DNA from: Thermoplasmatota archaeon
GTDB lineage: Archaea; Thermoplasmatota; E2; JACPAO01; JAHFTW01
NCBI GenBank assembly: GCA_041623215.1
Contig: JBFJXH010000003.1
Location: 1-39,481 of the forward strand
DNA: 39,481 nt
Direction of reading: 5' to 3'
Part shown: in pieces, positions 4,525 to 39,481 of the stretch
How positions within the stretch are numbered: the stretch's first letter is position 1
How the letters are laid out: each line of letters begins with the position of its first letter
Program-made: the position numbers and the translations under genes
Notes under the pieces: model-generated
Seen by the model: the letters and a program-made list of their open reading frames with translations, nothing else
Told to the model about the DNA's origin: nothing
Database searches by the model: none

Positions 4525-4568
4525 CGAAGTGGCCGCCGAAGCACGCGTTGCTGGCCTTGAAGCGGAGC

Positions 4569-5597: not shown

Positions 5598-5681
5598 GAG
5601 CGTCGCAGGAGCTTGGCTTGAAAGAACCCAACGGCCTCGCCAAGCGCTGCCAGCTGCCTGCTGCGCGGGCCTTTTGCCGCG

Positions 5682-12454: not shown

Positions 12455-12457
12455 CTT

Positions 12458-12691: not shown

Positions 12692-12910
12692 GAGGCTGCG
12701 ACCTAGGGGCCGCTGATAAGGGCGCGGGACTGCCTCGGGGGGACACGTGGGCGGCGCGGGCCATCTCGTTTGCTGGCGTTCGATTGGCGAAGCTTGAAGA
12801 AGGGGTCTGGGGTCGCGGCGGCTACCCCTGGTGTGCCCGCATCTTCTGGTGTTGGCATGTCAACGTATCTCCTGGTGTCGGAGTAAGGCATACACCGAAG
12901 AGATACACTT

Positions 12911-12983
12911 GGGCCCGTAGGGTAGCTTGGTATCCTTGTACCTTGGGGTGGTATAGACTCCAGTTCAAATCTGGGCGGGCCCA
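12911..12983 (+). tRNA. tRNA-Pro(GGG)
   Basis: Acceptor stem GGGCCCG/CGGGCCC, anticodon arm GTACC-TTGGGGT-GGTAT, T-loop TTCAAAT. G1:C72 and A73 are archaeal Pro type. No intron and no encoded CCA. Confidence 0.95.
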
Positions 12984-13139
12984 CTCAATCAGTGGTTGTT
13001 GGGCGTCGTAGGTGACGCAAATCGTATCGCGCAGGGGGTGCGCAATCGCCGCCATTCCCGGGCGCGAGGTTGCAAAAGGCCGCCCCGCAAGGCGGTGAAC
13101 GAACCTTGCGAGGCAGCGTATGGGGTTGTCTTGAGTTGG

Positions 13140-23790: not shown

Positions 23791-24827
23791 GGCGTTGACA
23801 CTAAGAGGGGAGCTGAAGGCGTTGCCGACGCGCCAGCCAGCATGGATTCCACGGTTTGCGGACCTGGCGCGACCTCCATGCATTCGATAGCGTGCACCGT
23901 TGCAACGACCGCGCGGTTCACGGGCGTGGCAACGCCTTGCTCGCTGCCATAGCGCGCTATGACGCCGTTGAGGTAGTCCACTTCTGTGGATTCGCCGCGA
24001 GCCAGGGACTGGGCGCTGCTCGACTGGTAGTCGCCGTATTTCTTGGCCAAGGCCTGGAGGACCACCTGGGCCACGGGACCTGGGAGGCCCGCCAGCAGCT
24101 TGGGTTTGGCATTGCCGACCGTGACAGGCTCGATGCCAAGCGCCTTCATGACTTCGAGGCCTTCGCGGATGACGGCAAGAAACGCCTTGCGAGTGGGCCC
24201 GTGCGCCATCATGTCCCGCATGGTGCCGCCGTGCACGACGCCGAGGCTGGTCATGGCGCTGTTGAGGATGAGCTTGGTCCATTTGACGGCGCGCATGTCG
24301 TCATGGGTGTCGGTTGGAACCACGGCAGACAAAACGTGGGCAACATGTTTGTGATGGGGGCTTGGCGCGCCGCGCGGCCACGGGCCGAGCAGGTTGTGCC
24401 CGTCGGCGGTCATATGACTGTGGCCCGGTTCCAGCAACGTAGCAGGCCAGTAGACGCTGCACTCTACGAAGCGGTCGCCGGCCACTTGCCGAAGCGCGTC
24501 GCCCATCAAGCCGTTTTGGAAGGGAACCACGACGCCGTCGTGCGCCAGGGCGGGCATCCAGTGCTCCAACACGGCGGGCGCCACGCTGCACTTCGTGGTG
24601 TGGATGATGATGTCGAACGGGTCTAGGCCATCTGGCACATGGGCTGTGGGAATGCCCACGTGGCGGATGCTCCCGTCGGGGGCCGTGTAGCGGACGCGGT
24701 TGCGTTCCAGCCAGGCGGATTTTTTGGCATCGCGTACGCCCAGAACGACGTCGTGTTCTGCATCATGCAGGCGGATGGCGGTGGGGATGCCAAGGGCGCC
24801 GGGGCCAATCACCAGGATGCGGGCCAT
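23787..24827 (-). CDS. panE: 2-dehydropantoate 2-reductase family protein
   Basis: IGPGALG, FQNG, KWTKLILN and SSSAQSLARGESTEVDYLNG motifs. Confidence 0.88.
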   Translation of the reverse strand: MARILVIGPGALGIPTAIRLHDAEHDVVLGVRDAKKSAWLERNRVRYTAPDGSIRHVGIPTAHVPDGLDPFDIIIHTTKCSVAPAVLEHWMPALAHDGVVVPFQNGLMGDALRQVAGDRFVECSVYWPATLLEPGHSHMTADGHNLLGPWPRGAPSPHHKHVAHVLSAVVPTDTHDDMRAVKWTKLILNSAMTSLGVVHGGTMRDMMAHGPTRKAFLAVIREGLEVMKALGIEPVTVGNAKPKLLAGLPGPVAQVVLQALAKKYGDYQSSSAQSLARGESTEVDYLNGVIARYGSEQGVATPVNRAVVATVHAIECMEVAPGPQTVESMLAGASATPSAPLLVSTP

Positions 24828-25765: not shown

Positions 25766-26161
25766 TCAGATATCGTCGCGGTACAGCAGCGTGTCGGTTG
25801 CCGTGTGGACGATGCTCACGGAACCATCCGCTGCGCAGTCCCAGTAATCACCGGCTGCTAGGTTGCCGGTTGTCTTGTTGGTGCCACCTGCGTCTTTCAG
25901 TTGACAGGTGCCGCCGGTGGCGGTCACGTCACTGACCGCAATGGGTCCGTTGCTGATTTTGACGATACGGATATCGCCGCCAGCGCCGGATTTGTCGGTT
26001 TGGAAACTAGCCTTGGGTTGGTCTTGGGTGTCTCCACCCATATCGCTTACGAGCACGAAGACCACGGCTGCCAGCACCACGGTGATGGCGACCATCAGGA
26101 TCACCCCAATCACGGGGGATACAGCTTCTTCGTCCTTGCGGATGGTTCGTTGTTTTTGCAT
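25766..26161 (-). CDS. pilA: Archaeal type IV pilin, probable major pilin (Pilin_N/DUF1628)
   Basis: Class III signal RKDEEA|VSPVIGVILMVAITVVLAAVV; GGAGGT SD upstream of ATG 26161; two Cys. Confidence 0.92.
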   Translation of the reverse strand: MQKQRTIRKDEEAVSPVIGVILMVAITVVLAAVVFVLVSDMGGDTQDQPKASFQTDKSGAGGDIRIVKISNGPIAVSDVTATGGTCQLKDAGGTNKTTGNLAAGDYWDCAADGSVSIVHTATDTLLYRDDI

Positions 26162-26225
26162 CTTGGACCTCCTGGTCAACTATGGTTTGGCGGCCACCGG
26201 TATGGGCGTGTCGGCCGCGGAACTT

Positions 26226-26253
26226 GGGGAAAAGGGGACAAGGGGACACGGGG
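26226..26253 (+). repeat. 8-bp-period G4 repeat, candidate G-quadruplex or operator
   Basis: GGGGAAAA GGGGACAA GGGGACAC GGGG. Confidence 0.75.
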
Positions 26254-26533
26254 TTTGGTCCCATTGACGGGCATGGGGGAAGGGTCGGCTTGCGCGTGGC
26301 CTGGGTGGCCCGTGGGCTCGCCTTGTGCGACGGGGCACGGTAGCACGGTGCCATGCGCAGCCGCAAAGCGGTAGGCGGTAGGGCAGCGGTGCTTGGCGCG
26401 CCCAGGGGTGGCCTCCTCGGGTTTAGGGCCGAGAGACCGGTCGTCGGCGGGCTGGCCCATTGCTGCGGTTTGGCCTGCAACAGACACGTCCGGCTGGGCC
26501 TGGCGAAGGGCCTCAAGGGCCTCCGCTTGACTA

Positions 26534-28288
26534 TCACGCCAGGACAAGGAACACTCCCGCTGCAATGGCGACCATGGCGGTACTGTGGGGCAGGCCGAGG
26601 ACGACGCGCCCCGTACCCATCTTGCCGGCCACGATGCCGGTGCCGACGGCTTGGACGACCGCCGCTAGATAGTAGAATGTGCGATACTCCTCTTTGCTCG
26701 CTGCATCAATGTCGAGGCCCGGCGTGCCCGCCGTTGCCTCGGCGCTGGTGATAATCTGGGGAACGAATTGGCCGTACAGGATGGCTGTGACCACAAGAAA
26801 AACGCCGAACGTGATGTACAGAATCATGGTGTAAAGCGTCATGTTGACGCGCCGTTCATTCTCGAGGTTCTTGATTTCACGCGCGTCGCGCGCCGCCGCC
26901 AGAAGCACGTCGCTGGTGTTACCTCCGCTGCGGTCTGCTTCCAGAATCACGTGTACTGCGCGTCGAACGAGGGGCGTGGATACACGCGTCGCCAAGTCTG
27001 TGAGCGCATCACCGAAAGGAACGTCCCAACTCAGTTGCCGACTCATGTGGCGAATCTCGGGACTCAGGTCGCCGTAGTCACCTTGCGCGGCAACCTCGAC
27101 GGCATGGGGCAACGTCAGTCCACCTTGGTGGCTACTAGCCAAGTCACGAAGCAGGTCGGGGAAGCGCTCTTCCATGCGACGCACGCGGGCATATTCGCGG
27201 GCAGCGTAAGCGCCGTAGGGGCCGATGGCGACGATGAGGGCAAGGACGAAAAGATCCACGCTTGCCGTTGGGGCAAGCCAAGTGGGGCCCTTCTCGAGTC
27301 GAGCCAGCATGGCGAAAACGGCAATGGTGGTTGACAGCACCATGCTGACGGCAAGTAGGGTGGTGGCCGTCCGGTCCCTCGCCAAGCTCTGCGCCTGGTA
27401 CAACGGCATGTCGTCGTTGCGGCGCGCCAAGCGCCAAGCGGCAACCGACGCGCCCAGCATTGCCATCCCCGTCCCGATGGACAGCACCAGGAAAGCTGGG
27501 TCCGTGCTGCCGCGGAAGATTTGCAGGCGTTGGTTGCCGGCTACGAGAAACGCCAGGAAGCCGGCCAACAACAGGGCCAGGCCACCCAGGGTCGGCGCAA
27601 TCACTGACTTGCTGCGACTAAAGTAGGTCGCGCCGCCGTACACGTCGCGTTCGGCAGCCAGCAAAATGTAGAGGGTCGGAATGCTGCGGGCCAGAAACAG
27701 GTCCAAGGCCAGCAGCGTCACCGCGATGAGGATGAGTACGGGCGTATCCTTCATGCCGAGGCCTGTGCCGGGCACGCCCCGTCCCGTTGCCAACCAGGCA
27801 GCTAAGAATGCTAAGACGCCGACCAGCACCGCGAGAATCACGTGGCCGACTTGCGTGGCCGTGCTGCGGTGAACGGTCAGCGGCGCATGGAGGCTGTGCC
27901 AAAGCGCGTAGCCTCCGACCGCAACGAGAAGCAGACTTAGGACGTGGCTGAAGGCTGCGACTGTTTCCCTGCTGACCACGCGATCAATGGCGCCGGCCTC
28001 TAGCTCGATGGCTAGCACGATGGCCACGAGGCCCATGACCGTCAGGAAGTTGAGGACGACGCTGACGAGCTTGAGAACTTGCCAGCGATGGCGTTCCGCC
28101 TCACGGTCGGGGTCAGAAGGCACGCGGAGCTTTCGAGCGAGCATGGCGGCCAGGGCCACGAGGCCAATGCCCGCGGCTTGCAGAATCGGCGTCCAGCCCA
28201 GCCATTGCGTCCACGCCGCGCCCGTGCCCACCGCAAACATGAGTCCGCCGGAGAGCAAAACGAAGCTGGCTGCGCGCTGCCGGTTCAC
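26534..28288 (-). CDS. Type II secretion F / TadC-like pilus platform protein with large N-terminal multi-TM region
   Basis: EERFPDLLRDLA...GLTL...YGDLSPEI...SGG T2SSF signature in the C-terminal ~210 aa. Confidence 0.88.
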   Translation of the reverse strand: MNRQRAASFVLLSGGLMFAVGTGAAWTQWLGWTPILQAAGIGLVALAAMLARKLRVPSDPDREAERHRWQVLKLVSVVLNFLTVMGLVAIVLAIELEAGAIDRVVSRETVAAFSHVLSLLLVAVGGYALWHSLHAPLTVHRSTATQVGHVILAVLVGVLAFLAAWLATGRGVPGTGLGMKDTPVLILIAVTLLALDLFLARSIPTLYILLAAERDVYGGATYFSRSKSVIAPTLGGLALLLAGFLAFLVAGNQRLQIFRGSTDPAFLVLSIGTGMAMLGASVAAWRLARRNDDMPLYQAQSLARDRTATTLLAVSMVLSTTIAVFAMLARLEKGPTWLAPTASVDLFVLALIVAIGPYGAYAAREYARVRRMEERFPDLLRDLASSHQGGLTLPHAVEVAAQGDYGDLSPEIRHMSRQLSWDVPFGDALTDLATRVSTPLVRRAVHVILEADRSGGNTSDVLLAAARDAREIKNLENERRVNMTLYTMILYITFGVFLVVTAILYGQFVPQIITSAEATAGTPGLDIDAASKEEYRTFYYLAAVVQAVGTGIVAGKMGTGRVVLGLPHSTAMVAIAAGVFLVLA

Positions 28289-28289
28289 G

Positions 28290-29174
28290 TCAGGCCTCCG
28301 GAGTCATGACATGGATTGTGTAGGCAAAGCCGGCTTGTGCGGCGGGTAGCAGCAGCAAAATCATCATGTAGCCGATACGAAGGGCGTGGTCCGCGCTGCC
28401 TCCCAGCATGCCCATGACACTGAGGATGACGAGCAGGAATAGGGGGGCTGCGGCCACGACGACGACGAAGCTCTCGGCCAGAACGCCGAGGCTGTCCAGG
28501 AATTTTTTCTGGTCCTGGCGATTCTCGTACAGAAACTGGTCCGCCTTGCTGGCAAAGTATGCTTTCAGGTCGCCGCCACCGGTGAGCACGGTAACAACAC
28601 CTTGGAGCAGGTCTTGCCACTTGGCACTGGGGCTCCGGTCAATGCCCTTCCCCAGCGCCGTCAGCAAGTCGGCGCCCAGAAGGTCCATGTCGCGGACCAG
28701 CCAAGCAGCTTCCTGTGCGACTTCCCCGTAAATGTCCTGGCCTGACAAGCCACGTAGAATCGCATCGGGGCTGGCGCCGGCGGCCGCCATGGTGCTGACA
28801 TAGTTGAGCGCGTACGGTAGGCGCACGTCGATGTCACGCGCACGGCCACGGGCGCGAAGATCGGGCCAGAGGCGACCCAAGAAGTGGGCTGTGGTGGCCA
28901 TGACGAAAGGTAAGGGGACGAGAATAATCCAGGCGGCTGCTGGGCCTCCCAGGACGCCGGCTACCTGTAGGCCCACCAGCATGCCGAGCGCCAGAAGCCC
29001 CAGGCCGAGGGATATGAACACCAACAAGCGCAGCGTTGCCAGGTAAACTTCTGGGCGCAGCGTAATGTGGGCCCGTTCGAGGGCAATTCCTAGGTGGGGG
29101 TTGTCGGCGGCGGCGCGACGGCCGTGTCGCCCCAACACGCGGTAGGCGGTGCGGTGCAGGCCGTCCATGCTCAT
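28290..29174 (-). CDS. Type II secretion F / TadB-like pilus platform protein
   Basis: IDVRLPYALNYVSTMAAAG...YGEVAQE...SPS...GGDL signature. Confidence 0.9.
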   Translation of the reverse strand: MSMDGLHRTAYRVLGRHGRRAAADNPHLGIALERAHITLRPEVYLATLRLLVFISLGLGLLALGMLVGLQVAGVLGGPAAAWIILVPLPFVMATTAHFLGRLWPDLRARGRARDIDVRLPYALNYVSTMAAAGASPDAILRGLSGQDIYGEVAQEAAWLVRDMDLLGADLLTALGKGIDRSPSAKWQDLLQGVVTVLTGGGDLKAYFASKADQFLYENRQDQKKFLDSLGVLAESFVVVVAAAPLFLLVILSVMGMLGGSADHALRIGYMMILLLLPAAQAGFAYTIHVMTPEA

Positions 29175-31693
29175 GGGCCGCTTGCCTCCTCATCGTCGCC
29201 CGAGTCGCGTTTGCCTGTCTTCGCACCGCGTGCGAGCCGGTCGGCCAAGCCCTCCTGCGGCGTTTCGTCTTCGTCGGCGTCAGCGTCACTTGCGGCGCCC
29301 TGCCGGTCGGCGTCTGCTGGGTCTTCAACAGCCGTCCATTGGCTTGACGATTCGTCGCCCGGATTGATGACGGCATCAAGGCCTTCTAGCTCCGGCATAT
29401 CATCTCCGCCCCCGATTTCAATTTCGGATGATCGGGATGCCTGGTTGCTGCTGGCCGACTCGCCTCGGCCCCAAGGTTCGTCGCTTGCCAGCGGCGTTGC
29501 ATCGGGGTCTGCCGATTCCTCGGCACCAAGGATTTCCAGGACATCGGGCAAGGTTTCTTCCCCGTCGGCTTCGGGTGCCGGGCCGTCGGCTGCGCTCCAT
29601 GGCTTCTCCTCCGCATCGGGTACCGTAATCCACCCTCTGCGCACGTCGTCATCCGCCACAACTTCGTCCTCGCCGGTGGTTGCCTCGGACTCAGATTGCG
29701 GGGCGGCCGGCTTCTCCAATTGCGCCGGCGTCGCCGCCAGGCGGGCCGTCGAATCGAGTGGCGTTTCCAGGTCGCCGAGAGCCATTTGGAGCGCTTCGGA
29801 GGGGTCGTTGTAGTAGTGGTGCAGAACGGCAGCCACGTGGGGCAAGTCCGTGCGACCATTATTTCGGAGTGCTTCCAGCAGCTCGGCGCGCCGTTTCCAT
29901 TCGGCTTCCACTTCCGCCTCCGAATCGAGCGCGTGCTGGCGAACCCGGTCGAGCAAGTACGATTTGCCCATGAAGCGGTGCTCGTCGCCAGCAGGGTCCC
30001 ACTCAAAGACCGTGTTGGTCAGTAGGTCGCCCGTGTCCGGTTCGAAGCCAATGATTTCCGTCACCTCCGTGACGCGACGTTGAATGCGGCCACCAACACG
30101 CACTTGCCGCTGAATCGCCACCACGTCGAGGGTTTGCAACATCAGCCGAGGCACGTTGATGGGTTCGTTTTCCAAGCGGTAAACGGCGCTTGCCACGGAG
30201 TCGGCGTGCATGGTGCTGGCCACGGCGTGACCCGTTGCCATTGCCTGGAACAGTGTTTGGGCCTCGGCGCCACGAACCTCACCCACGAGCAGGTGCTCGG
30301 GACGCTGACGCAGAGCTGCTGCTAGCAAGTCGAACATGTCGACTGACCCGGCGCGCCGCCCGCGGGCATCGCGTGACCCAAACCCTGAGCGCGTGATGCC
30401 GGCAATCCAGTTTTCATGCCGGAGATTGATTTCCCTGGTGTCCTCAATGCTGATGACTTTGCGTTCGGGGGGAATGAACTGGCAGACCGCGTTTAGTGTG
30501 GTGGTCTTTCCACTAGCAGTGCCGCCCGCCATCAGCAGGCTGCCGCCTTGGTCCATGAGGAACCAAAACCACGCTGCCATTTTGTCCGTCCATGTCCCGA
30601 ACCGCATCAGATCGGGCGGCGTCATGGGTTCATCGCGGAAACGACGAATGGTGAAGCTACTGCCTCGACTCGTGACCTCTCGGCCTAGGGTGGCTTGCAA
30701 CCGCGACCCGTCCGGTAGGGTTGCATCCAACAGGGGGTCGGCAATACTGATGTGCTTGCCGCTGCGCTGGGCCATGCGAATCACGAACCGGTCGAGCCCG
30801 CGTTCTTCCTCGAAGATGACGTTGGTGGGAATGCTGGCATGCTTGCGGTGGTACAGGTACACAGGCACGCCGGGGCCATCGCAACTAATGTCCTCGATTT
30901 CGGGGTCCATCATCAACAAGTCAATGGGGCCGAAGCCGAGCAAATCACGCACGAGGTAGTAGCGAATGCGCTCTTCGGCAACGTCGTCCACGACGACGCT
31001 ATGATTGGTGATGGCCTGCGTGATTTCCTGGTGTAGCACTTCCTCGGCGTCCACATTGCTGGGGGGTTTGGCGGGCAAGGTGCGAACGAGTGTATCTCGC
31101 AGGAAGGCTAGCACTTCGCCTTCAAGAATCGTAAGTTGTGGCTCGTGGACCTCGTAGTGAAAACGGTCGCCCTGGGTGTCGCGCACGATGCGCACAGCGG
31201 CGTTGCCACCGCGCTCCATCCGCAGATGGTGTTCAACTTCGTGAACTTTCATCTCGGGGATGTCAAGCACGTTGCGGGTCGGGTCGAGGCCAAATTCATC
31301 AGCATGGTCCTGGACATGCTGGCGGTGTCGTTTGGCAGCGTCTTGGCGCCGGCGAACGGTCTTGGCCTCCCGCATCATGCGCTTGGCTTCACTTGCCATG
31401 CGCTTGGCTTCCCGCTCGGCTGACTCACGGCGGAGCTTGGCGATTTGGCGCGCCCATGCGGCGGTGCGCGCAGAACCCTCGCCGTCGTCTTCCATTGGTG
31501 GCAGGTCGTCTTCAATCGGCTCGGCATCGATGCTACTGCCGTTGGCCTTGCCGCCAGATCCGTTCGTCGTAGGGCCCCCAAGTCGCCGCGCCATGGGTCG
31601 CTTGTTGGCTGTGCCATCGCTCTTGCGTCGGCGCAGTTGCCGCGCGACAGCGCGCGTCGTCTGGCGTGATGGCTTAGCTCGGTCCGGCGTCAT
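29171..31693 (-). CDS. Type IV pilus assembly ATPase (PilB/TadA/VirB11 family)
   Basis: EDISCDG, GGTASGKTT, IEDTREI, LRQRPEHLLVGEVRG, TGH..TMHA. ATG 31693 lies 1 bp after the upstream stop. Confidence 0.95.
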   Translation of the reverse strand: MTPDRAKPSRQTTRAVARQLRRRKSDGTANKRPMARRLGGPTTNGSGGKANGSSIDAEPIEDDLPPMEDDGEGSARTAAWARQIAKLRRESAEREAKRMASEAKRMMREAKTVRRRQDAAKRHRQHVQDHADEFGLDPTRNVLDIPEMKVHEVEHHLRMERGGNAAVRIVRDTQGDRFHYEVHEPQLTILEGEVLAFLRDTLVRTLPAKPPSNVDAEEVLHQEITQAITNHSVVVDDVAEERIRYYLVRDLLGFGPIDLLMMDPEIEDISCDGPGVPVYLYHRKHASIPTNVIFEEERGLDRFVIRMAQRSGKHISIADPLLDATLPDGSRLQATLGREVTSRGSSFTIRRFRDEPMTPPDLMRFGTWTDKMAAWFWFLMDQGGSLLMAGGTASGKTTTLNAVCQFIPPERKVISIEDTREINLRHENWIAGITRSGFGSRDARGRRAGSVDMFDLLAAALRQRPEHLLVGEVRGAEAQTLFQAMATGHAVASTMHADSVASAVYRLENEPINVPRLMLQTLDVVAIQRQVRVGGRIQRRVTEVTEIIGFEPDTGDLLTNTVFEWDPAGDEHRFMGKSYLLDRVRQHALDSEAEVEAEWKRRAELLEALRNNGRTDLPHVAAVLHHYYNDPSEALQMALGDLETPLDSTARLAATPAQLEKPAAPQSESEATTGEDEVVADDDVRRGWITVPDAEEKPWSAADGPAPEADGEETLPDVLEILGAEESADPDATPLASDEPWGRGESASSNQASRSSEIEIGGGDDMPELEGLDAVINPGDESSSQWTAVEDPADADRQGAASDADADEDETPQEGLADRLARGAKTGKRDSGDDEEASGP

Positions 31694-31694
31694 G

Positions 31695-33080
31695 TTATGC
31701 CTCGAATCGAATCGCAACGTCGGTCGAAGCAATGGTCGCAGTCACGTCCAGCGCCGTCGAAGTGACCGCGGCGTCCGAACCGTAAATTGCGACCTTGCAC
31801 CAGCCGCTTCCCGTGGTCACAACGTACTCGCCAGATGTTGCGTCGAGGCCGCTGTTTCGTAGATGGTCGTTCCACCATGTGTTCCATGCCATGGGGTAGT
31901 TGGTGGTGAGGTTGATGATGAAGTGCGGGGCCAGGGCGCGTAGGGAGGTCCCTCCTTGACCTGAAAGTGTCGAGGTGACGACTCCCCCGCCGGACCTTGT
32001 CACCTCGTCACTGGCGATGCCAGGCATGTCGATGCGAAGCAGGGTGGTGGAGGGTCCCTTGCGAATGTCCACAGCTGGGCCCGACAACAAGACGGCACCA
32101 TCGTCCTGGACGGCTACGACGGCGCCGTGTTCAAGCATCAAATCTTGATCCGGCAACTGTTGGTGGTTGGCGTTCCAGATGACGCGGCCTGTTTGGGTTT
32201 CCAGCAGGAATGGAATGACGTCCTGGCCGCTCGAGCCCGACGGTGTCCCGGAACTGTGCTCAATGAAGGAAGCGGTGTAGGCACCGTTCCAACCACTCTG
32301 GGTGAATTGGAAGGACGCCGGTTTCTTCGCCGCCTGTACCACGGATTCAAACAGGGTTTCAGGGGACATGGCATTCACCCAGAACATACTCGGCATATCC
32401 TGCTGGAACCGGCTTTCCCCGTCGTCGTAGCGCACCACGCCATTGGCGTCAACGACGCGTGTCTTGAGCGCATAGCCCGAGGGGTAATCCTCCTTGTAAA
32501 CGGTGAGGCTGCCCGCGAAAGCGCCGGAAGAATCGATGACGGTCAGGGCGACATTGTCGCCGGCCGCGCCCGAGGCGGGGTCCGTTACGCGGATGCGCAG
32601 GTGCTGGAGTGTGCCGATGTTGCTAACATCGCTGGTGGTCGTAATGTTGGTCCAATTCTCCTCGATGCCTGCCAAATCTACACCGTCTCGCTGGATGACG
32701 AGCAAGCGGTCCGCCGACAACGCGGCGCCGCCTGTGCCAGGCACAATCTCCAATTCGGCCGACCGCACCTGGGCCTGGAACCAGCGGCCATCACTATCCA
32801 CGCCCAGTGCCACGGGCACGCTCACTGGCGCCGACCCGTTGTCGACCATCCGCACGAGAGCAGATGCCATGTCAATCATGTCGTCTTGGGCGATGTCGAG
32901 GCGGTCTGCTTCCTTGTCTTCGGTCCAATGAGGTACGAAGCGAATTTGCACCGTCACAATGGCCGTAATCATCAGGCCCACGAGCATGACGGCGCCAAGC
33001 ACAATGGTGACGCCTCGCTCATCGTCACGCAGATGGTGCGCCGACGTGGGTCGTCGGCGGCGTGAAACGGCACCCGTCAT
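31695..33080 (-). CDS. Large minor pilin / pilin-like protein
   Basis: Class III-like signal RDDERG|VTIVLGAVMLVGLMI, followed by VPHW...E; later LEHGAV and TNYPMAW motifs. Confidence 0.8.
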   Translation of the reverse strand: MTGAVSRRRRPTSAHHLRDDERGVTIVLGAVMLVGLMITAIVTVQIRFVPHWTEDKEADRLDIAQDDMIDMASALVRMVDNGSAPVSVPVALGVDSDGRWFQAQVRSAELEIVPGTGGAALSADRLLVIQRDGVDLAGIEENWTNITTTSDVSNIGTLQHLRIRVTDPASGAAGDNVALTVIDSSGAFAGSLTVYKEDYPSGYALKTRVVDANGVVRYDDGESRFQQDMPSMFWVNAMSPETLFESVVQAAKKPASFQFTQSGWNGAYTASFIEHSSGTPSGSSGQDVIPFLLETQTGRVIWNANHQQLPDQDLMLEHGAVVAVQDDGAVLLSGPAVDIRKGPSTTLLRIDMPGIASDEVTRSGGGVVTSTLSGQGGTSLRALAPHFIINLTTNYPMAWNTWWNDHLRNSGLDATSGEYVVTTGSGWCKVAIYGSDAAVTSTALDVTATIASTDVAIRFEA

Positions 33081-34684
33081 TCAATGCCTCCACTGGCCGG
33101 TGTGCCCACAACGGTAACGCCGGCGGGGAAGACCTTGGCCTTGCCATTGTTGTCGTCGAAGGTTGCGCCGTCCACGTAGATTGTATTGGTGGGAAGCGTT
33201 GCATGCAATTCCAGCTTCATGGCGGACGTGTAGACGCCGTTGCGGACATCCACGTCGCCGTTGGCGGTCAAGATGATGTCGCGCCCGCCGCTTGCAGTTG
33301 TTATGCTGGCGCCGCTGGCATCGATGCTGCTGGCCGAACTGGTGTAGAGAATGTCCGTCGTTCCCGCGCTGAGTGTGGCTGAGGTGGTACTGATGGTGCC
33401 AACTGCTGTCAGGCGCACACCTTGGCCAGCTTGCAGGGTCGCTTGATTGACGCTCATCGCGCCAAGCGTAGCATCCAGGTAGATGGTTCCCGTGACGGTC
33501 GTCATGGTTACACCGGGATCAACCGTGAGTTGACCCGTGGTGGCCGTGATGTCAATCTTGCTTGGATTGGTAGCGCCGACGATGAGGTCAGTCTGAACCG
33601 TCACGTTGGCGGCCGTTAGGGTTACGGATGCGCCGACGTTGACGGGACCGGACGACGGTGGTAACACCAAGCAGTTCGGTACAATCACGGTTGCTGCGGG
33701 GCCGGTCAGAAGCGCCTGGACGCTGACGTCGCCATCCACGACGTAGTACTTGCCGTCACAGTTGACGTCGTGGTAAGCGAAGCCAGGGTCAGCCTCGGGC
33801 ACGATGGCATCCACTAGTTCGTTACGGACCGTGGTCGTGCCGGGGTTGCCCATCAGGTCCTGGTGGCCAATCGCGTAGAATTGCAGGTTGCTGCCCGTGT
33901 GAAGGGCCCAAACGTGGACGGGGATGTTGGCCTTCCATGTGTTGCCGCCTTGGTTGACCATGCTCCCAAGGTCGGTCCAGGCAGGATTGCTGCCGTTGTT
34001 GATGCGGTACCAAAGGTGCGGGTCAACCGTTGTGTCCACGCCGCTGCAATCGTCAGCGAGCGTCAGCAGGACTTCGACGCCGCCCACCGTGAGCGTGGTT
34101 ACGTCCGTCGGATTTGTTTCCCACGAGCTGACCAGAGGTGGCGTGATGTCGCCCTTGCAGGCGGAGGATCCACTGAGGCCGGTGGAGGCCAAGAGCGCAC
34201 CGCCGGCATTGTTGCCTTGTAGCGTGAACGCTGTCGCCCTCACCTCACTATTGCTGCTAACAGAACGCGTGGTTTGCCACGATTCGCCAATACGCAATTG
34301 GCCGTCTGTAAATCCGTGATCGGCGGGTGTGTCGTGTTCCTCCGGCGCACCATCAACTTCAACCCGCAATCGAAGCCCTTCTGCGTCCACTGCTTCGCCG
34401 CCGAAGTGCCGCAGCGCAATGGACTCGTCACCGGTGCCCCAGGATCCGTCGTCGCCCGCCGACAGAAGCCAGCGAAGGTCGCTGTGCTGCGTGTCATCGG
34501 GTCCATCAAAGGAAAGCACCAGGAACCATAATCCAGCCATGGAAACGACCGTGATGGCAATGAGAAGTAGGTTGCCCACGATGTCGCTCGCCGCGGTTCG
34601 GTCGCGGCCCAGGCGTCGGCGGCGCGACGCGCGCGCGTTTCTGCGCGTGGTGGGCTTGCGGCTTGGCAGCGCAGCGAACTTCAT
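33077..34684 (-). CDS. Large pilin-like adhesin (Pilin_N, Ig-like domain, beta-solenoid repeats)
   Basis: RDRTA|ASDIVGNLLLIAITV; LRHFGGE...LRIGESW; Thr/Ser-rich beta repeats at the C-terminus. Confidence 0.82.
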   Translation of the reverse strand: MKFAALPSRKPTTRRNARASRRRRLGRDRTAASDIVGNLLLIAITVVSMAGLWFLVLSFDGPDDTQHSDLRWLLSAGDDGSWGTGDESIALRHFGGEAVDAEGLRLRVEVDGAPEEHDTPADHGFTDGQLRIGESWQTTRSVSSNSEVRATAFTLQGNNAGGALLASTGLSGSSACKGDITPPLVSSWETNPTDVTTLTVGGVEVLLTLADDCSGVDTTVDPHLWYRINNGSNPAWTDLGSMVNQGGNTWKANIPVHVWALHTGSNLQFYAIGHQDLMGNPGTTTVRNELVDAIVPEADPGFAYHDVNCDGKYYVVDGDVSVQALLTGPAATVIVPNCLVLPPSSGPVNVGASVTLTAANVTVQTDLIVGATNPSKIDITATTGQLTVDPGVTMTTVTGTIYLDATLGAMSVNQATLQAGQGVRLTAVGTISTTSATLSAGTTDILYTSSASSIDASGASITTASGGRDIILTANGDVDVRNGVYTSAMKLELHATLPTNTIYVDGATFDDNNGKAKVFPAGVTVVGTPASGGIE

Positions 34685-35418
34685 CGAATCCGCCCCGCTG
34701 CAAAGCTGCCGGTCACTTCAATGCCATTCGAGTGTAGCCTGTAGTCAACCCAACCGACCTGGAGCTTGAGCGCATGGCCCATGACGTGCACTTGCCGCTT
34801 GGTGTCCTGGTCGCGAAGCTCGATGCTGCCGTGCGCCAGGTGGCGAATGCCGGCTACGGCGGCGTCCCGGTGCATGCCCTTGTCTAACAGCAACACCGTC
34901 GCCGCTCCCGCGTGTCGGGCTCGGCCGAGAACGACGTGGAGGAATCGAAATAGGGCGTCGTCGCCAGCGTGGGCCGCCAGCGTGCTTACGGAGTCAAGGA
35001 TGAGAACGTGGTCGCGGAAATTGCCTTGCAACTCGCGTTGCACTTCGTTGATGGCCACCGCAATGCCGTTTAGGTCGCCCGCGCCATCAACGCTCTTGGT
35101 GCCCTCCTCGACGGGGGTTTCCAATGATGTGCTGACGGTATCAATATGCCACAGGAGGCCGGCCTGCATCCAGGCGGCCACAGCATCTTCGCCTACCAAT
35201 TCCCGCAACCGGTCGGTTGCCTCCACCGACGTTTCATGCGTGTGAAGCCAAACAACGGGCACCCCACGGCCAGCGGCGCCTGCCGCCGTCGTGCGAGCCA
35301 GCAGGCGTTTGCCAGCGAATCGGGGACCATAGAGCAGGGTGGTTCGCCGGACGGGCAGCCCGCCGCCGAGCAAGTCATCCAACCGGTCTGCCCCGGTCGG
35401 GTGCCGCTCGACGGTCAT
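34681..35418 (-). CDS. KaiC/RAD55-like RecA-fold ATPase, degenerate
   Basis: PTGADRLDDLLGGGLP; Walker A GPRFAGKR; LILDSVS; no KxR finger. Confidence 0.82.
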   Translation of the reverse strand: MTVERHPTGADRLDDLLGGGLPVRRTTLLYGPRFAGKRLLARTTAAGAAGRGVPVVWLHTHETSVEATDRLRELVGEDAVAAWMQAGLLWHIDTVSTSLETPVEEGTKSVDGAGDLNGIAVAINEVQRELQGNFRDHVLILDSVSTLAAHAGDDALFRFLHVVLGRARHAGAATVLLLDKGMHRDAAVAGIRHLAHGSIELRDQDTKRQVHVMGHALKLQVGWVDYRLHSNGIEVTGSFAAGRIR

Positions 35419-36575
35419 GCGGTTGGCCTCCGGGCAAGGATGCGGCCAAGCAGCCCCTGCAGTAGGGAACGGGCGCTATCGGCGTCGGTTGCGTCGAGAT
35501 GGACCACGGGCACATCGGCTCCCAGATCCAACGTCTGCGGCTCCGGAATCTTCGCCTTAGGGTCCTTCGTAATGCCAACCGTGCAGGAAAGACCGAGGTC
35601 CTTGATCCGACGGACATGGTCGCGTGCGTTTTCGATACCTTCCGGGTCAGCACCATCAATGAGAATTACGGCCGCCACCGCCTCGCGCAGGACCGGTTCC
35701 AACATGGGGGCAAAGCGCCGCTGGCCCGGGGCACCGTACAGGTCGGCGACAATGTCGTCCGTCGTGTAACGCCCGCGGTCAATGGCTACCGTGGTGCCGC
35801 CGCGCTCCGTGCCCACACTCTGCTGGCTGGCCGAGCGAACGAAGGTTGTTTTGCCGGCGTCGGGCGCGCCAACGACGACAATCTTGGGTACGTGAATCTG
35901 AACGCCGCCCGGCGGCCCCACGAGGATGGGATGCCAATGCGGTTGCGTGACGGGTTTGCCGTCTCGTCGTACGACGGCGGCCCTCAAACTGCGAAGGACG
36001 CCGCGCTCAATGCCCTCCATCGTGATGCCGGCGTCAAAGGTGACGTCCAGCATCGCCTCGTCCAATGGGTATGGCCAGGCGGTCCATGTGGCGCACGCGG
36101 CGGGATAGCGCGTGATTGCAGCCTGCAGGTCCGGCCACATGGCCGTGAAGGCGGTCGCGCCGGCACGGTCCACCAGCCCGCTGAGACTGTCCAGAAGCAA
36201 CATGGCGCCTGGATGCGCGTGCGCTACCTGCTGTAGCACAGCGGCAACAGCTGCGGGATTGCCGGGGTCGTGGACCAAGTGGTCGTTCTGTTCGAGTGCC
36301 GCGGGTCCGCTGCACGCATCAATGGTCACGATGCGGCCGCCGTCGAGGTGGATGCCTGTGCTTTCCGCGTGACGAAGGAAGCTCCGGGGAGCTGTGGTCG
36401 TGGTCATGAGAATGACGCGCTCACCCCGGTCCAGGGCGGCTCGCGCCATCCGGGCCAGCCAAACGCGGCCGTCCGTGCCGGGGTCATGGCGCACCAGGAC
36501 GCGCGCGGCGGCGGGGTCCCCGACGTCGAACGCCTGCGAGTTGGAAACGACCCGGTCAACACCCACTGTAATCAC
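35415..36575 (-). CDS. Fusion of an inactive KaiC-like domain and an MglA-like small GTPase
   Basis: N-part has LLLDSLS but no P-loop Lys. C-part has GAPDAGKTT, TTVAIDRG, LYGAPGQRRF and ITKD. Confidence 0.8.
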   Translation of the reverse strand: MITVGVDRVVSNSQAFDVGDPAAARVLVRHDPGTDGRVWLARMARAALDRGERVILMTTTTAPRSFLRHAESTGIHLDGGRIVTIDACSGPAALEQNDHLVHDPGNPAAVAAVLQQVAHAHPGAMLLLDSLSGLVDRAGATAFTAMWPDLQAAITRYPAACATWTAWPYPLDEAMLDVTFDAGITMEGIERGVLRSLRAAVVRRDGKPVTQPHWHPILVGPPGGVQIHVPKIVVVGAPDAGKTTFVRSASQQSVGTERGGTTVAIDRGRYTTDDIVADLYGAPGQRRFAPMLEPVLREAVAAVILIDGADPEGIENARDHVRRIKDLGLSCTVGITKDPKAKIPEPQTLDLGADVPVVHLDATDADSARSLLQGLLGRILARRPTA

Positions 36576-36937
36576 CGAGATGGATTTTCTACCATACTGC
36601 GCGCCTGCTTGGCGGCGGCGACGAGCGCCTCGGCGGAGGCGTCGGCATCACCCGTCACAATGACCAGCGAATCATCGTCAACGCCGGCCACCACGAGGCG
36701 GCCTTCGGGCGTGTTAATGGTCATGTGGTCCACCGTCGGGCGTCGCAATTCGCTGGCAGCTGTTTCCATGGCAGCTAGACTGGCCGCCCCCATGGCGGCT
36801 ACACTCCAATCATCTACGCCGCCAGCGAACTGGCACGCAGCGGGTCGGCCGTCGCGAAGAATGATTCCCGCGCCGGTTACGCCGTCGCAAGCCAAGACTC
36901 GTTGCAGCGCGTCTTTGCCAGAATCAGACGCGGCCAT
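36572..36937 (-). CDS. Roadblock/LC7 (MglB-like) protein
   Basis: GVTGAGIILRDG...VAAMGA...ETAASEL...INTPEGRLVV pattern; 121 aa from ATG 36937 with GGAGG upstream. Confidence 0.88.
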   Translation of the reverse strand: MAASDSGKDALQRVLACDGVTGAGIILRDGRPAACQFAGGVDDWSVAAMGAASLAAMETAASELRRPTVDHMTINTPEGRLVVAGVDDDSLVIVTGDADASAEALVAAAKQARSMVENPSR

Positions 36938-37466
36938 GGCGCGCCTCCGCAGAGGGTGAATCGCTGGCTTCGGGCTTTGCTTTGGGGTCGTCATCTGGCG
37001 GTCGATCGCTGCTGCCTCCGGGTCGCGTCGCATGTAGCGCACGGCTGAAGGCCAGTTCCTTCTGGCGCTGTCGGGAGCGACGCAGGAAGGCTTCGGTAAT
37101 GACCTGGAGCAGACGGTCAGGTTGGAGTGGCTTGGTGAAGAAATTGTCAATCCGCGCCTCGTTGATGGCATCGACAGCGAGCTGCAAGTCCGGGTAGGCG
37201 GTGGCCATGATGCGCGGCGTGCGCGGCGCCAAATCCTTGGCCCGGTTCAGGAATTCAAGCCCATCCATGCCGGGCATCTTGTAGTCGCTGATGATGAGGT
37301 CAAACGCTTGCTCATCCAACACCTTGAGGGCCTCTACGCCACTGCGGGCGGTCCACACGTCCATGTCGGGAAAAGTCGCTTCCAGCAGGTCGCGAAGCGA
37401 ATCAAGAATATCTGGTTCGTCATCCACGATGAGAATTCGGGACGGCGGTTCTGCTGATGGCGCCAT
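36924..37466 (-). CDS. Response regulator receiver protein with short C-terminal tail
   Basis: ILIVDDE, ISDYKMPGMDG, TAY and TKP all intact; CTTAAG at 37492-37497 supports ATG 37466. Confidence 0.92.
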   Translation of the reverse strand: MAPSAEPPSRILIVDDEPDILDSLRDLLEATFPDMDVWTARSGVEALKVLDEQAFDLIISDYKMPGMDGLEFLNRAKDLAPRTPRIMATAYPDLQLAVDAINEARIDNFFTKPLQPDRLLQVITEAFLRRSRQRQKELAFSRALHATRPGGSSDRPPDDDPKAKPEASDSPSAEARHGRV

Positions 37467-37491
37467 GTGCACAACTTTCCCGGATTGCCGA

Positions 37492-37497
37492 CTTAAG
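37492..37497 (-). promoter_or_regulatory. TATA-like box heading the regulator-pilus operon
   Basis: CTTAAG about 28 bp upstream of ATG 37466. Confidence 0.55.
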
Positions 37498-37837
37498 GGT
37501 GCCTTGCGGGGGCGTTGGCCGGTGGGACCTAGGGGCCTCGGGCCACCTGGCAATCGCGCCCCCCCCCGCCGCGTAGCGGCTCGGCAGCCCACCCACGCGC
37601 GAGGCGCGAGGCAGGCAAAGGCCGCAGCCGCGCTACGCATTGCATTGCCCGTGGCAGGCGGTTTGGGCCAGGTGGGCCAGGCGAGGCGGGTTGGGGGCAG
37701 GCGCGGGGATACCAATCAGGGGGGTTTGAGGTGGCCCGCGGAACCCCAGTTTCGAGCATGGATGCCGAGCCCCGAAGCCCCAAAAGGACCACTTCCCCTT
37801 CCAACAGTATCAACGAGGGGCGCGTTGAAGACCATGC

Positions 37838-38287
37838 ATGGCCGTGACGGAGCAGGAGCCCTCAGGTGAGGTAGGATTCCTGGCGAACCTGTTTGACCAC
37901 TTTCGGGACTTGGTAGGGGAAGCGGCAGCGTGCACGTCACTCCGGTATGCCGCGTACCAAGAGGGCAAGCGAATCGGTCAGGGCCACCGCTTGGAAGATT
38001 TGCCGGCGCTTGCTAGGCGCCTGGATGCCATTCTAGGACACAATAGTGACTTGCGCAGCGAAGGCAAGGTGATTTCATGCACCGTGGAGGGCGATGAACG
38101 ATTGTCGGCGGGCCACCCGCTGACGGAAGCGGTGACGCTGGGGCTTCTCGAGGGAGCCTTGCAAGTCGTTACCGGCCGGCCGCTGCGTGCGCGGCGCCTC
38201 AATGGGAAAACGCACGCTGATGCTGCTGCGCCAGTAACGGCTGCTCAGCAATCCGTCTCCATTCTTTTGGAGGTGCCGCATGGCTGA
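37838..38287 (+). CDS. V4R/H-NOX-fold-like small protein
   Basis: LRYAAYQEGKRIG and LGLLEGALQVVTGR helices resemble V4R domains; overlaps the next gene, which has a GGAGGTG SD. Confidence 0.6.
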   Translation: MAVTEQEPSGEVGFLANLFDHFRDLVGEAAACTSLRYAAYQEGKRIGQGHRLEDLPALARRLDAILGHNSDLRSEGKVISCTVEGDERLSAGHPLTEAVTLGLLEGALQVVTGRPLRARRLNGKTHADAAAPVTAAQQSVSILLEVPHG

Positions 38288-38591
38288 AGGTCGAGACGTT
38301 AAGGACTTGTTCGAGGCGTGGGTAAACACAGACTTGAAGGCTCAGATTATTGTGTTCTTCCATCAAAATCCCGGTGTCATAGAAACCTGGGAAGGATTGG
38401 CGCGACGTCTGGGTACGGACGTGAGTGCCCTGAAGAAGCAACTGGCTGACCATTTGAAATTGGGCATTTTCGAAGTGCGCGATTTAGGGGACAAGACGGT
38501 CATTGTGTATGATGCCGGACGCCGCAAGGCGGTCCAAGAGGAAATGGTGTCTAGCGTGGAACGACGCCTGCGCGAGGAGGAAGCCCGATGA
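38280..38591 (+). CDS. Small winged-helix protein
   Basis: FFHQNPG..ETWEGLARRLG...LKKQLADHLKLGIF...VIVY wHTH pattern. Confidence 0.7.
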   Translation: MAEGRDVKDLFEAWVNTDLKAQIIVFFHQNPGVIETWEGLARRLGTDVSALKKQLADHLKLGIFEVRDLGDKTVIVYDAGRRKAVQEEMVSSVERRLREEEAR

Positions 38592-39436
38592 GTCGGCCTG
38601 AGGGCCGACCGGCTGCCACGACGCAGAGCCGAGCAGAAGAGACACGCACCAATCCAGATCGTGGAGAGTTGTCCGTTCCGCAGCGCGTGGCCACGGGTGT
38701 GGTTGGACTAGACGCGATGCTTGGGGGCGGCCTCATGCCAGGTGATGCCACGCTGGTGGCAGGCAGTCCCGGTACAGGTAAGACAACGCTTGGCACACAT
38801 TTCTTGGTGCACGGCGCGCAAAACGGCGAGCCCGGAATCATGGTCACCTTCGAATATCTGCCCCAGCAAATTTACCGGGACGCAGCGGCGCGTGGATGGG
38901 ACCTGCCGGCGTTGGAAGACCAGGGCTTGCTGAAGGTCATTTGCTTGACGCCGGATATTCTACTGGCCCAGGCCCAACCGGGTGTGACGCTTCTGGACGA
39001 AGCAATTCGCGACATTGGGGCCAAGCGGTTGGTTCTCGACTCTATGAGTCATTTCAGCTTCTATGATGGCAGTCGCGAAGGGCTTCGCGACGACCTTGCA
39101 GGGCTCTTGAATCATCTGCGCTTCCAGGGTGTGACTAGCATCCTGACGCATGAGATTCCACAAATTGTTGGCCCGGCGGTCCACATCAGCGAGTATGGCC
39201 TGGAGTTTCTGGTCGATGCTGTGATTTTGCTCCGGTACGTGGAACTGGATGCCAGCCTGGAAAAGGCGGTCAACATCCTGAAGTTTCGTGGCGGTTCTCA
39301 CGACCGGTCGTACCGTCGTCTGACGCTAGATGAAGGGGGCTTCTCCGTTCACGGCACCTTCGAGGGCGTGGAGGGCATCAGTAGCGGCAGCGCGCGGCAT
39401 TCCAGCATCGAAAAACGTGCCCGGAGGCTCATCTGA
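38588..39436 (+). CDS. KaiC/RAD55 family ATPase, single domain, intact
   Basis: TGVVGLDAMLGGG, GSPGTGKT, TFE, LVLDSMS and ILKFRG (Arg finger). Confidence 0.92.
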   Translation: MSRPEGRPAATTQSRAEETRTNPDRGELSVPQRVATGVVGLDAMLGGGLMPGDATLVAGSPGTGKTTLGTHFLVHGAQNGEPGIMVTFEYLPQQIYRDAAARGWDLPALEDQGLLKVICLTPDILLAQAQPGVTLLDEAIRDIGAKRLVLDSMSHFSFYDGSREGLRDDLAGLLNHLRFQGVTSILTHEIPQIVGPAVHISEYGLEFLVDAVILLRYVELDASLEKAVNILKFRGGSHDRSYRRLTLDEGGFSVHGTFEGVEGISSGSARHSSIEKRARRLI

Positions 39437-39481
39437 TGAGCTCGGCGACCCTGGCCGCGTCCGCAGCCTTCGCGGTCGCCA
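39436..39481 (+). CDS. Start of next gene, 3'-truncated
   Basis: ATG overlaps the KaiC stop (TGATG); frame is open to the window edge. Confidence 0.45.
   Translation, partial: MSSATLAASAAFAVA

Follow-up and report, generated by a model that had tools for sequence, protein, structure and literature searches.

An optional GTPase, Roadblock and KaiC-like cassette at the head of a type IV pilus operon in a Thermoplasmatota archaeon

To our knowledge, little is known about the post-transcriptional control of pili in archaea, and we know of no archaeal small GTPase with an assigned cellular target. Both subjects meet in a locus of a Thermoplasmatota archaeon, found in a stretch of 39,481 nucleotides (assembly GCA_041623215.1, contig JBFJXH010000003.1, positions 1 to 39,481, about 63% G+C across its length) which is called the window hereafter. 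On its minus strand, genes for a receiver protein (REC), a Roadblock protein, a fusion of a KaiC-like domain with a small GTPase and a second KaiC-like protein (KaiC2) precede the genes of a type IV pilus. Is this signalling cassette an integral part of the pilus, a switch acting on its motor, or a mere neighbour? The analysis indicates that the locus is a regulatory variant of a known machine, real, conserved and as yet uncharacterised, and that the cassette is an accessory of it. Whether it acts on the pilus motor as an optional post-translational GTPase/KaiC switch, akin to ArlH together with MglA/MglB, is a question on which we find the scales about level. In what follows, G-numbers denote genomes of relatives, L-numbers denote loci, and f- and g-numbers denote families and genera.

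Nine consecutive open reading frames (ORFs) run from 37466 to 26534 on the minus strand, in the order REC, Roadblock, KaiC::GTPase fusion, KaiC2, two large pilin-like proteins (pil535 and pil461), the pilus ATPase, and the N- and C-terminal halves of a TadC platform protein. According to the ORF listing, all junctions are overlaps or gaps of at most 1 nt: 4 nt are shared at each of the Roadblock/fusion, fusion/KaiC2, KaiC2/pil535, pil535/pil461 and ATPase/first TadC junctions, 14 nt are shared by REC and Roadblock, and the two TadC genes lie 1 nt apart. The start of the ATPase gene is ambiguous, TTG at 31732 giving a 38-nt overlap with pil461 and ATG at 31693 a 1-nt gap; with the latter, every junction from REC to the second TadC overlaps or falls within 1 nt. 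A small pilin follows after a gap of 354 nt from its listed ORF (start 26179) to the platform gene, or about 370 nt when ATG 26161 is taken as its start. On the other side, a 371-nt intergenic region separates REC from three divergent plus-strand genes, which encode proteins of 149 and 103 amino acids and a canonical KaiC. The nine overlapping or abutting genes reported by the first-pass annotation, an earlier reading of this DNA from its letters, were borne out by the ORF coordinates, and the identities it had given to them and to the pilin after the gap were reproduced by annotation with hidden Markov models (HMMs) of Pfam and NCBIfam. The gene-level description of the locus is correct.

The fusion gene (35415..36575, minus strand) encodes 386 amino acids, in which profile, model and fold matches distinguish an inactive KaiC/RecA-like domain (residues ~1-228) and a small GTPase of the Ras superfamily (residues ~229-386). 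As a single sequence the N-terminal half is sub-threshold for the Pfam KaiC model (21.9 bits against a cut-off of 26.6); a profile built from 17 fusion homologues and compared with the PDB matched, over this half, KaiC (1.6e-22) and the archaeal single-domain KaiC-like protein PH0284 (7e-22). The C-terminal half was recognised as a small GTPase by TIGR00231 (1.3e-7) and, by profile, matched Arl8 (3.5e-17), an Asgard Arf and Rab proteins (~1e-17). In an AlphaFold (AF2) model of the fusion, with a predicted local distance difference test (pLDDT) of 81.9 and a predicted TM-score (pTM) of 0.68, fold matches of residues 1-230 were PH0284 (Z 20.7), SSO2452 (20.2), KaiC (19.7) and two FlaH/ArlH structures (19.0 and 17.9), and residues 225-385 aligned to Rab, Arf and Ras with Z of 17-19 (Rab3C, Z 19.2). 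The P-loop is absent from the N domain in all 17 aligned sequences, which retain a Walker-B-like hhhhDS. In the G domain of the same alignment the G1 motif GxxxxGK[ST] is kept and the switch I Thr262 is nearly invariant. The G3 consensus is FGTPGQ, with Gly in place of the usual Asp; the window protein reads YGAPGQ and is one of the 13 sequences out of 17 with PGQ. G4 is NKxD in 15 of the 17 and TKDP in the window protein, where a deletion of 4 amino acids directly follows (35560-35575). A frameshift artefact was considered for TKDP and rejected, no alternative frame encoding NKxD. The GTPase of this genome may have an altered nucleotide specificity.

Screening 1.84 billion representative proteins with the fusion profile gave 181 matches at E up to 1e-30, and about 100 of the best 150 were full-length (~380-400 amino acids). 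Atlas clusters auto-named 'Arf/KaiC/ATP_bind_1' are all archaeal, mainly from Thermoplasmatota and Methanobacteriota. Among the matches listed, full-length relatives occur in metagenome-assembled genomes (MAGs) labelled Methanosarcinales, Methanoperedens, Methanocellales, Woesearchaeota, Parvarchaeum and Methanobacteriaceae, and the G domain, taken by itself, shares 41-46% identity with stand-alone Anaerolineae GTPases and ~34% with Streptomyces proteins, which we take to be CvnD proteins. Related loci were searched with a narrow alignment of six fusion sequences, whose listed matches omit the window's own lineage and are no census; the single fusion sequence, used as query against genome contigs, found no relative. 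A 568-amino-acid ORF in L028 that seemed to join the fusion to KaiC2 was rejected as a gene fusion, its X residues coming from N runs, that is, from a scaffold gap.

The first-pass annotation had named this GTPase MglA, which the analysis did not bear out. Only the generic small_GTP model and no MglA model matched in NCBIfam; MglA was absent among the best 60 PDB profile matches and the best 50 structure-comparison matches, and among the matches listed the best solved relatives are Arf, Arl and Rab proteins. Querying PDB sequences by phmmer with the GTPase of a Thermaceae locus (L078) gave 0 matches, so that no bridge to Thermus MglA was obtained. When traits of MglA were looked for in the window GTPase, G1, the switch I Thr and the G3 Gln were present, G3 was without the canonical Asp, and a Roadblock gene was adjacent. 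A G3 without the canonical Asp is a trait of the MglA family. The G3 theme of these GTPases also appears in PMC4316618, cited here, as are the other papers below, from extracts of its text. By its matches the protein is Arf/Rab-like, its likeness to MglA consisting of the Roadblock partnership and the Asp-less G3 only. The label 'MglA' and the idea of polarity or reversal that came with it exceed the evidence, and control of the position or reversal of the pilus would be pure analogy.

KaiC2 (34681..35418, minus strand) is KaiC/ArlH-like, consists of a single domain and has the deviant Walker A GPRFAGKR; it is matched by KaiC (5.1e-14) and DUF7504 (6.9e-14). It scored 52.6 bits against PF06745 (cut-off 26.6), and in NCBIfam it stayed below the cut-offs of FlaH PRK06067 (4.3e-9, 36.2 against 194) and ArlH (7e-6, 25.9 against 215). 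The Walker A of its homologues has GK followed by E, R, D, A or N, or else GR, and none of the 21 aligned carries Ser/Thr after the Lys; in the wider KaiC2 set, L122 is the sole exception, with GKT. KaiC2 ORFs match positions 2-185 of the fusion profile at ~1e-17, and therefore KaiC2 and the N domain of the fusion are, as read from this match, paralogues; their genes adjoin in nearly every locus. The C-terminus of KaiC2 (34681-34725) ends in a tail, G-[SA]-x-x-x-G-R-[IV]-x, which is conserved in this phylum and lacking in homologues from other phyla and in the f12 and f30 variants. This tail is a candidate docking peptide. Its use as a marker of pilus linkage was rejected: it marks the clade and not the linkage, because loci of the phylum without physical linkage (L125, L126, L134, L136-L138) have it as well.

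Upstream of the fusion lies the gene of a Roadblock/LC7 protein of the MglB-like fold family (36572..36937, minus strand; Robl_LC7 1.5e-9, 37.9 bits against a cut-off of 23), the one Robl_LC7 match in the whole genome to which the window belongs. The Roadblock gene adjoins the fusion in relatives too, with Robl_LC7 scores of 58.5 bits in G036 and 63.6 in G040. REC (36924..37466, minus strand; Response_reg PF00072 8.9e-27, 93.9 bits) is a stand-alone receiver with a low-complexity tail of ~50 amino acids. Its translation contains every catalytic residue: an acidic DD pair, the acceptor Asp (within LIISD), the Thr (within ATAY) and the Lys (within FTKP). In relatives this position is held by homologues that are 49-73% identical. 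A PAS-HisKA-HATPase kinase adjoins REC, mostly in divergent orientation, in G001, G004, G009, G013, G017, G021 and G029; such a kinase also stands beside REC in G022 and G024, which have no Roadblock-fusion-KaiC2 triad, and no kinase was found within 2-3 kb upstream of REC in G007 and G015. In the window the position of the kinase is taken by the divergent three-gene operon. The phosphorelay input proposed earlier needs a change on this point: no histidine kinase stands beside REC in the window, although one does in relatives. Elsewhere in the window, a HAMP-HisKA-HATPase_c kinase is encoded at 19607-21499 on the plus strand, ~4 kb past the small pilin. It is probably not cognate to REC, because it is just 24-34% identical to the REC-neighbouring kinases of relatives.

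The remaining genes make up an ordinary euryarchaeal-type type IV pilus operon. Pil535 (33077..34684, minus strand; 535 amino acids) is a large pilin-like protein with a Pilin_N N-terminus (4.8e-8, 34.2 bits against a cut-off of 25.2) and a Thr/Ser/Gly-rich, apparently repetitive C-terminal part; its homologues directly follow KaiC2 in relatives. Pil461 (31695..33080, minus strand; 461 amino acids; DUF7289 5.4e-8), the second of these proteins, is also kept in relatives, and its N-terminus, ...DERG/VTIVLGAVMLVGL, resembles a class III signal peptide. The assembly ATPase of the T2SSE/VirB11 family (29171..31732, minus strand, or from ATG 31693) matches T2SSE PF00437 at 4.4e-36 (124.8 bits, cut-off 24.9), and its orthologues in relatives are 56-63% identical. 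The ends of the protein consist of a basic N-terminal extension of ~165 amino acids (31240-31732) and an acidic low-complexity C-terminal tail of ~200 amino acids (29171-29800); tails of the ATPase are long and variable in relatives, with stop-to-stop frames up to ~1,500 amino acids. The platform protein TadC/ArlJ is split into an N-terminal half (28290..29174, minus strand; T2SSF 1.6e-12, 47.9 bits against 25.2), covering positions 32-249 of the 555 of the ArlJ profile, and a C-terminal half (26534..28288, minus strand; T2SSF 3.8e-16, 59.6 bits against 25.2), which covers positions 262-538 and carries an extra N-terminal membrane region.

The small PilA-type pilin (25766..26161, minus strand) comprises 131 amino acids from ATG 26161 and matches Pilin_N at 5.3e-15 (56.5 bits against 25.2) and TIGR02537 at 1.2e-13 (50.2 against 20). 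Its identity is as first annotated; its start was corrected to ATG 26161, most likely the true one, with GGAGGT 7 nt upstream. No small pilin was seen downstream of the platform genes in 8 relatives by a crude scan for hydrophobic N-termini, and blastp gave one weak match (L111). The genome of the window contains one match to Peptidase_A24, the prepilin peptidase, on contig C26 (41.4 bits, cut-off 26.5). It also has a second pilus ATPase, 53% identical, on contig C40 with KaiC-like genes ~5 kb away (5029-6456, 11481-12889), and a third ATPase on contig C46.

The first-pass annotation had tied the signalling genes to the pilus from this one locus, and a search for lack of co-conservation failed to find it: the two sets are linked in many relatives, in three arrangements. 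The fusion is present, as a full or contig-truncated copy, in 26 of 40 relatives of the same class. In 12 of these 26 (G003, G006, G007, G011, G013, G020, G021, G027, G029 in part, G030, G032 and G033), the orthologous ATPase gene lies on the same contig no more than ~6 kb from the triad, and in 6 further relatives a homologue of pil535 directly follows KaiC2 before the contig ends; the others comprise 5 with contigs too short, 2 unlinked (G036 and G040) and 1 aberrant (G025). A phylum-wide sample of 151 genomes contained 46 with the fusion. Of the phylum loci, 20 were picked on long contigs so as to represent different families, and in 8 of them the ATPase-TadC-TadC block lies within 9 kb of the triad. 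The window's arrangement, with the triad heading the operon, recurs in L122 and L129; the triad stands after the platform genes on the same strand, at the operon tail, in L017, L127 and L128, and it is convergent with the platform genes in L119, L120, L121 and L135. Such proximity, kept through three gene orders, argues for a functional link. By a rough estimate, the chance of finding a triad within 9 kb of a T2SSE locus is ~3% per genome (~3 T2SSE loci in 2 Mb); the relatives are not independent and no formal statistic is claimed for these counts.

The cassette had been presented as a unit headed by REC. Of this unit the triad stood as conserved and REC turned out to be peripheral: it is missing where the triad follows the platform genes (L017, L127, L128), and it is retained with the pilus operon without the triad, directly upstream of the pilins, in G022. 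A variant of the module occurs elsewhere in the phylum. In L130-L133 and L138 (f12, f30, f18, f29), with no pilus genes nearby, a canonical KaiC (KaiC282-like) is encoded directly upstream of the fusion, and in L130-L132 it stands in place of a detectable Roadblock. In L071, a Nitrososphaeria MAG, a TadC-like gene comes directly after that of a stand-alone GTPase from this family (3480-5311), a possible independent link of such a GTPase to a pilus.

How could the cassette act? Starting from the gene identities, the folds, the loss of the P-loops and the linkage in three gene orders, which are observed, we propose a scheme in which an optional signalling cassette would be inserted at the head of a pilus operon whose two large pilins would be minor or tip pilins and whose small pilin, encoded separately, would be the major one. 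The fusion's dead KaiC domain would co-assemble with KaiC2 into an ArlH-like ring or adaptor docked on the pilus ATPase, and by this docking the GTPase would be held at the motor. A resemblance to ArlH/FlaH is seen in both KaiC-like modules, in the N domain of the fusion by fold (Z 19.0 and 17.9) and in KaiC2 by sequence (FlaH 4.3e-9). MglB, for its part, has the role of GTPase-activating protein (GAP) and/or guanine nucleotide exchange factor (GEF); the Roadblock protein, as GAP and/or GEF, would set the GTP/GDP state of the GTPase, and the nucleotide state would gate the activity or recruitment of the ATPase and, through it, pilus assembly. In the gene order of the window, a PAS histidine kinase and the stand-alone REC would bring in an environmental input, phosphorylated REC modulating the set. 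We infer all of these protein contacts, as well as the direction of control.

Control of assembly through KaiC adaptors had been part of the earlier proposal, and modelling of the corresponding complex lent it weak support only. For residues 165-660 of the ATPase with KaiC2 the prediction scored 0.34, against 0.00 for the best of 3 controls, with at least 90% contact agreement between runs and a pLDDT of 86 for the partner. Of 80 solved complexes, 58 attained this mark, as did 2 of 110 mismatched pairs; with scores of 0.60 or under, it was attained by just 7 of the 80 and by both passing mismatches. The use of custom alignments makes these counts only approximate here.

Several results weigh against a switch on the motor. 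The score of the KaiC2-ATPase pair falls in a range which the tool rates as more often wrong than right unless the guess is likely beforehand. Guanine specificity is uncertain in the window GTPase, because the G4 Asp is lost (TKDP). No histidine kinase is adjacent to REC in this genome, where the best candidate, 42% identical, lies on contig C45. In G036 and G040 the triad is surrounded by housekeeping genes, and the ATPase-TadC-TadC block is found on a different contig; of the 20 phylum loci, 12 are without pilus ATPase or TadC in the fetched flanks, and so are all 10 of the triad loci from other archaeal phyla. Finally, in genus g5 of the same family the fusion is absent from all 6 genomes (89-94% completeness), and the row pil535-pil461-ATPase-TadC-TadC is found without the triad in all 4 g5 loci examined. 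Since g5 retains the operon without the triad, the cassette is not needed to keep it; it is optional, an accessory not integral to the pilus. Because g5 keeps the pilus without the triad, and the triads of other phyla have no pilus neighbours, the conserved core as judged from these loci is the triad of Roadblock, fusion and KaiC2, to which REC and the pilus linkage are lineage-specific additions.

A more detailed version of the motor switch is doubtful. In it, the GTPase would be hard-wired to the pilus motor, the dead KaiC and KaiC2 would form an ArlH-like ring under the ATPase, Roadblock and phosphorylated REC would set the GTP state, and the neighbouring protein of V4R/TRAPPC3 fold would act on the GTPase. 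If true, this would be the first GTPase-switched archaeal surface machine, and it would unite in a prokaryote the GTPase, Roadblock and TRAPP-like parts that serve membrane traffic in eukaryotes.

That neighbour belongs to the divergent operon, which had been described as encoding a V4R-like protein, a winged helix-turn-helix (wHTH) protein and a KaiC. The KaiC was confirmed: the third gene (38588..39436, plus strand) encodes a canonical single-domain KaiC (8.5e-48, 163 bits) with the Walker A GSPGTGKT, and its homologues are 60-62% identical in G001 and G009 and 31% in G128 and G143. The V4R assignment of the first gene (37838..38287, plus strand; 149 amino acids) stands as a candidate by a medium-confidence fold match only. 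Neither this protein nor its two homologues matched PF02830 (V4R) at E up to 10, and the protein itself gave no other usable Pfam match. With a model of medium quality, built from a 3-sequence alignment (pLDDT 71.7), Foldseek returned TRAPPC3/Bet3 (4e-5) and the V4R sensor domain of PoxR/MopR (1.2e-4), within a range of E of 4e-5 to 1e-3 and TM of 0.5-0.6, and an Atlas lead ties the protein to V4R clusters at 0.91. The wHTH was not confirmed, the second gene (38280..38591, plus strand; 103 amino acids), with homologues in G001 and G009, having no significant Pfam match (best E 0.07).

These genes give substance to the alternative that fares best, though we consider it, too, doubtful: the cassette would control transcription of the pilus operon, with REC, the V4R-fold protein, the 103-amino-acid protein and the canonical KaiC as a sensor/regulator unit and the GTPase triad as one more input. 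REC and homologues of the V4R-fold gene stand divergent in G009, G128, G143 and G056, as the two genes do in the window; they do so in G001 as well, where the kinase comes between them. By this recurrence REC and the V4R-fold gene form what reads as a second conserved partnership. REC stays with the pilus operon without the triad in G022, and the KaiC-like CirA of Haloferax lowers arl transcription (PMC10983859, in the portion of text cited). However, no DNA-binding domain was recognised in the 103-amino-acid protein by Pfam, translational coupling joins the triad genes to the structural genes and not to the divergent operon, and neither a REC nor a V4R neighbour is present where the triad follows the platform genes (L127, L128).

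Alternatively, the triad could be a general archaeal GTPase/KaiC module, serving for instance polarity, division or membrane processes, that is a mere neighbour of the pilus in some lineages. The company it keeps in G036, G040 and a Methanocellales MAG (GHMP kinase, radical SAM, SPFH/NfeD and CobS genes) and the count of 0 pilus neighbours in the 10 loci of other phyla are in agreement with this explanation. We nevertheless hold it to be unlikely in view of the proximity to the same orthologous ATPase-TadC-TadC block through three gene orders in several families, and of the position of the window triad inside an operon with 4-nt overlaps.

An obligatory structural role in the motor, which would make KaiC2 and the fusion true equivalents of ArlH and not regulators, is quite improbable. 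Their ArlH-like fold and sequence similarity, the position of their genes immediately upstream of the pilins and ATPase, and the weak support for a KaiC2-ATPase complex would fit such a role, but the orthologous operon persists without them in g5, and both P-loops are degenerate whereas ArlH binds ATP (10.1101/2021.03.19.436134, cited in part).

An unusual rotary filament of archaellum-like type, as opposed to an adhesive or twitching pilus, is a very improbable product of this locus, for although an ArlH analogue is present and FlaI is the best NCBIfam match of the ATPase (404.7 bits, next BasE at 178.9), FlaI stays under its cut-off of 550 and ArlH (25.9 against 215) and ArlJ (55-56 against 400-550) far under theirs, the filament genes are of Pilin_N and DUF7289 types, and archaellin PF01917 gave 0 matches in the 88%-complete genome.

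Geranylgeranyl reductase (11072-12454, minus strand), tRNA-Pro(GGG) (12911-12984, plus strand) and RadA (13140-14528, minus strand; Rad51 domain 1.3e-88 and HhH domains), upstream of the pilus locus, support an archaeal host. Between RadA and the pilus locus are encoded a superfamily-1 helicase (AAA_11/AAA_12; 14771-17005, plus strand), a protein with a weak Lon_C protease domain (17639-19504, plus strand) and an NYN-domain protein (22897-24282, minus strand). A 438-amino-acid fusion of an OMPdecase/HUMPS-family domain with an RraA-like domain (21525-22841, plus strand) has homologues of 72-77% identity a few kb from the g5 pilus operon (L111, L114), so that the neighbourhood is syntenic on that side.

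With the motor switch as the working scheme, the locus presents a conserved GTPase/Roadblock pair tied by fusion and operon to KaiC-like adaptors and to one defined machine. It offers a concrete and testable target for archaeal Ras-superfamily GTPases, and for the signalling-hub role proposed for KaiC-like proteins. Natural controls exist in g5 without the cassette, in lineages with the triad alone and in the NKxD and TKDP forms of G4, and, although the organisms are uncultured, the solubility and small size of the proteins allow work in vitro.

As the first-pass annotation had supposed, no characterised archaeal system of this layout turned up in the literature searched, which excluded the neighbourhood tables of the 2016 census and Makarova, Galperin & Koonin 2017 (mBio), sources that may pre-empt part of it. 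The pilus itself has close counterparts. Euryarchaeal clade-2 pili are described with an ATPase, tadC genes that often number two, minor pilins and a PilA pilin (Makarova, Koonin & Albers 2016, PMC4858521), and the CdiP pilus of Cuniculiplasma (Thermoplasmatales) with a split platform, CdiPFa/CdiPFb (PMC12448462). Like them, the window has an ATPase, two tadC-like genes, minor pilins, a PilA-type pilin and a split platform. The 2016 census states in generic terms that KaiC families and Roadblock proteins (arCOG02603) are often found in pilus loci (PMC4858521); the extracts of PMC4858521 and PMC12448462 mention neither a KaiC::GTPase fusion nor a REC-Roadblock-GTPase-KaiC cassette.

ArlH and CirA are the KaiC-like proteins that have been characterised at machines of type IV filaments. 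CirA, encoded in the arl gene cluster of Haloferax volcanii, is a motility regulator (PMC10983859, in part). It resembles the proteins of the window in being encoded beside type-IV-filament machinery and, unlike the cassette, has no GTPase or Roadblock partner described in that portion of the paper. ArlH (FlaH), the KaiC-like partner of the archaellum ATPase ArlI, shares with them a single-domain KaiC/RecA fold and a gene beside an ArlI-like ATPase. In contrast to ArlH, KaiC2 has a deviant Walker A and the fusion none, a pilus takes the place of the archaellum as partner machine, and a GTPase is attached.

Sets of Roadblock and GTPase genes are also found in bacteria, namely in Streptomyces conservons and in loci of Chloroflexota and Thermaceae, where the GTPase stands alone and no KaiC partner or pilus genes occur in the flanks screened. 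In L078, a Thermaceae MAG, an OmpR-type response regulator, a 217-amino-acid unknown protein, a 167-amino-acid GTPase with FGTPGQ and a Roadblock protein are encoded in a row (4299-6749), which resembles the archaeal cassette minus its KaiC parts. The conservons of Streptomyces link such GTPases to two-component-like sensors (PMC4316618, in the text cited). The characterised bacterial GTPase/Roadblock pair that acts on type IV pili is MglA/MglB (PMC4316618, PMC10933270, PMC7668184, each in part). The window differs from it in that its GTPase is fused to a dead KaiC and paired with KaiC2, for which the bacterial system has no counterpart, and in that its pilus is of archaeal type. What the window shares with the MglA/MglB systems of Myxococcus xanthus and Thermus thermophilus is a pilus-linked Ras-superfamily GTPase encoded beside a Roadblock protein, with a G3 that lacks Asp and keeps PGQ, and, as in the Myxococcus MglA circuit with RomR, a receiver protein in the set.

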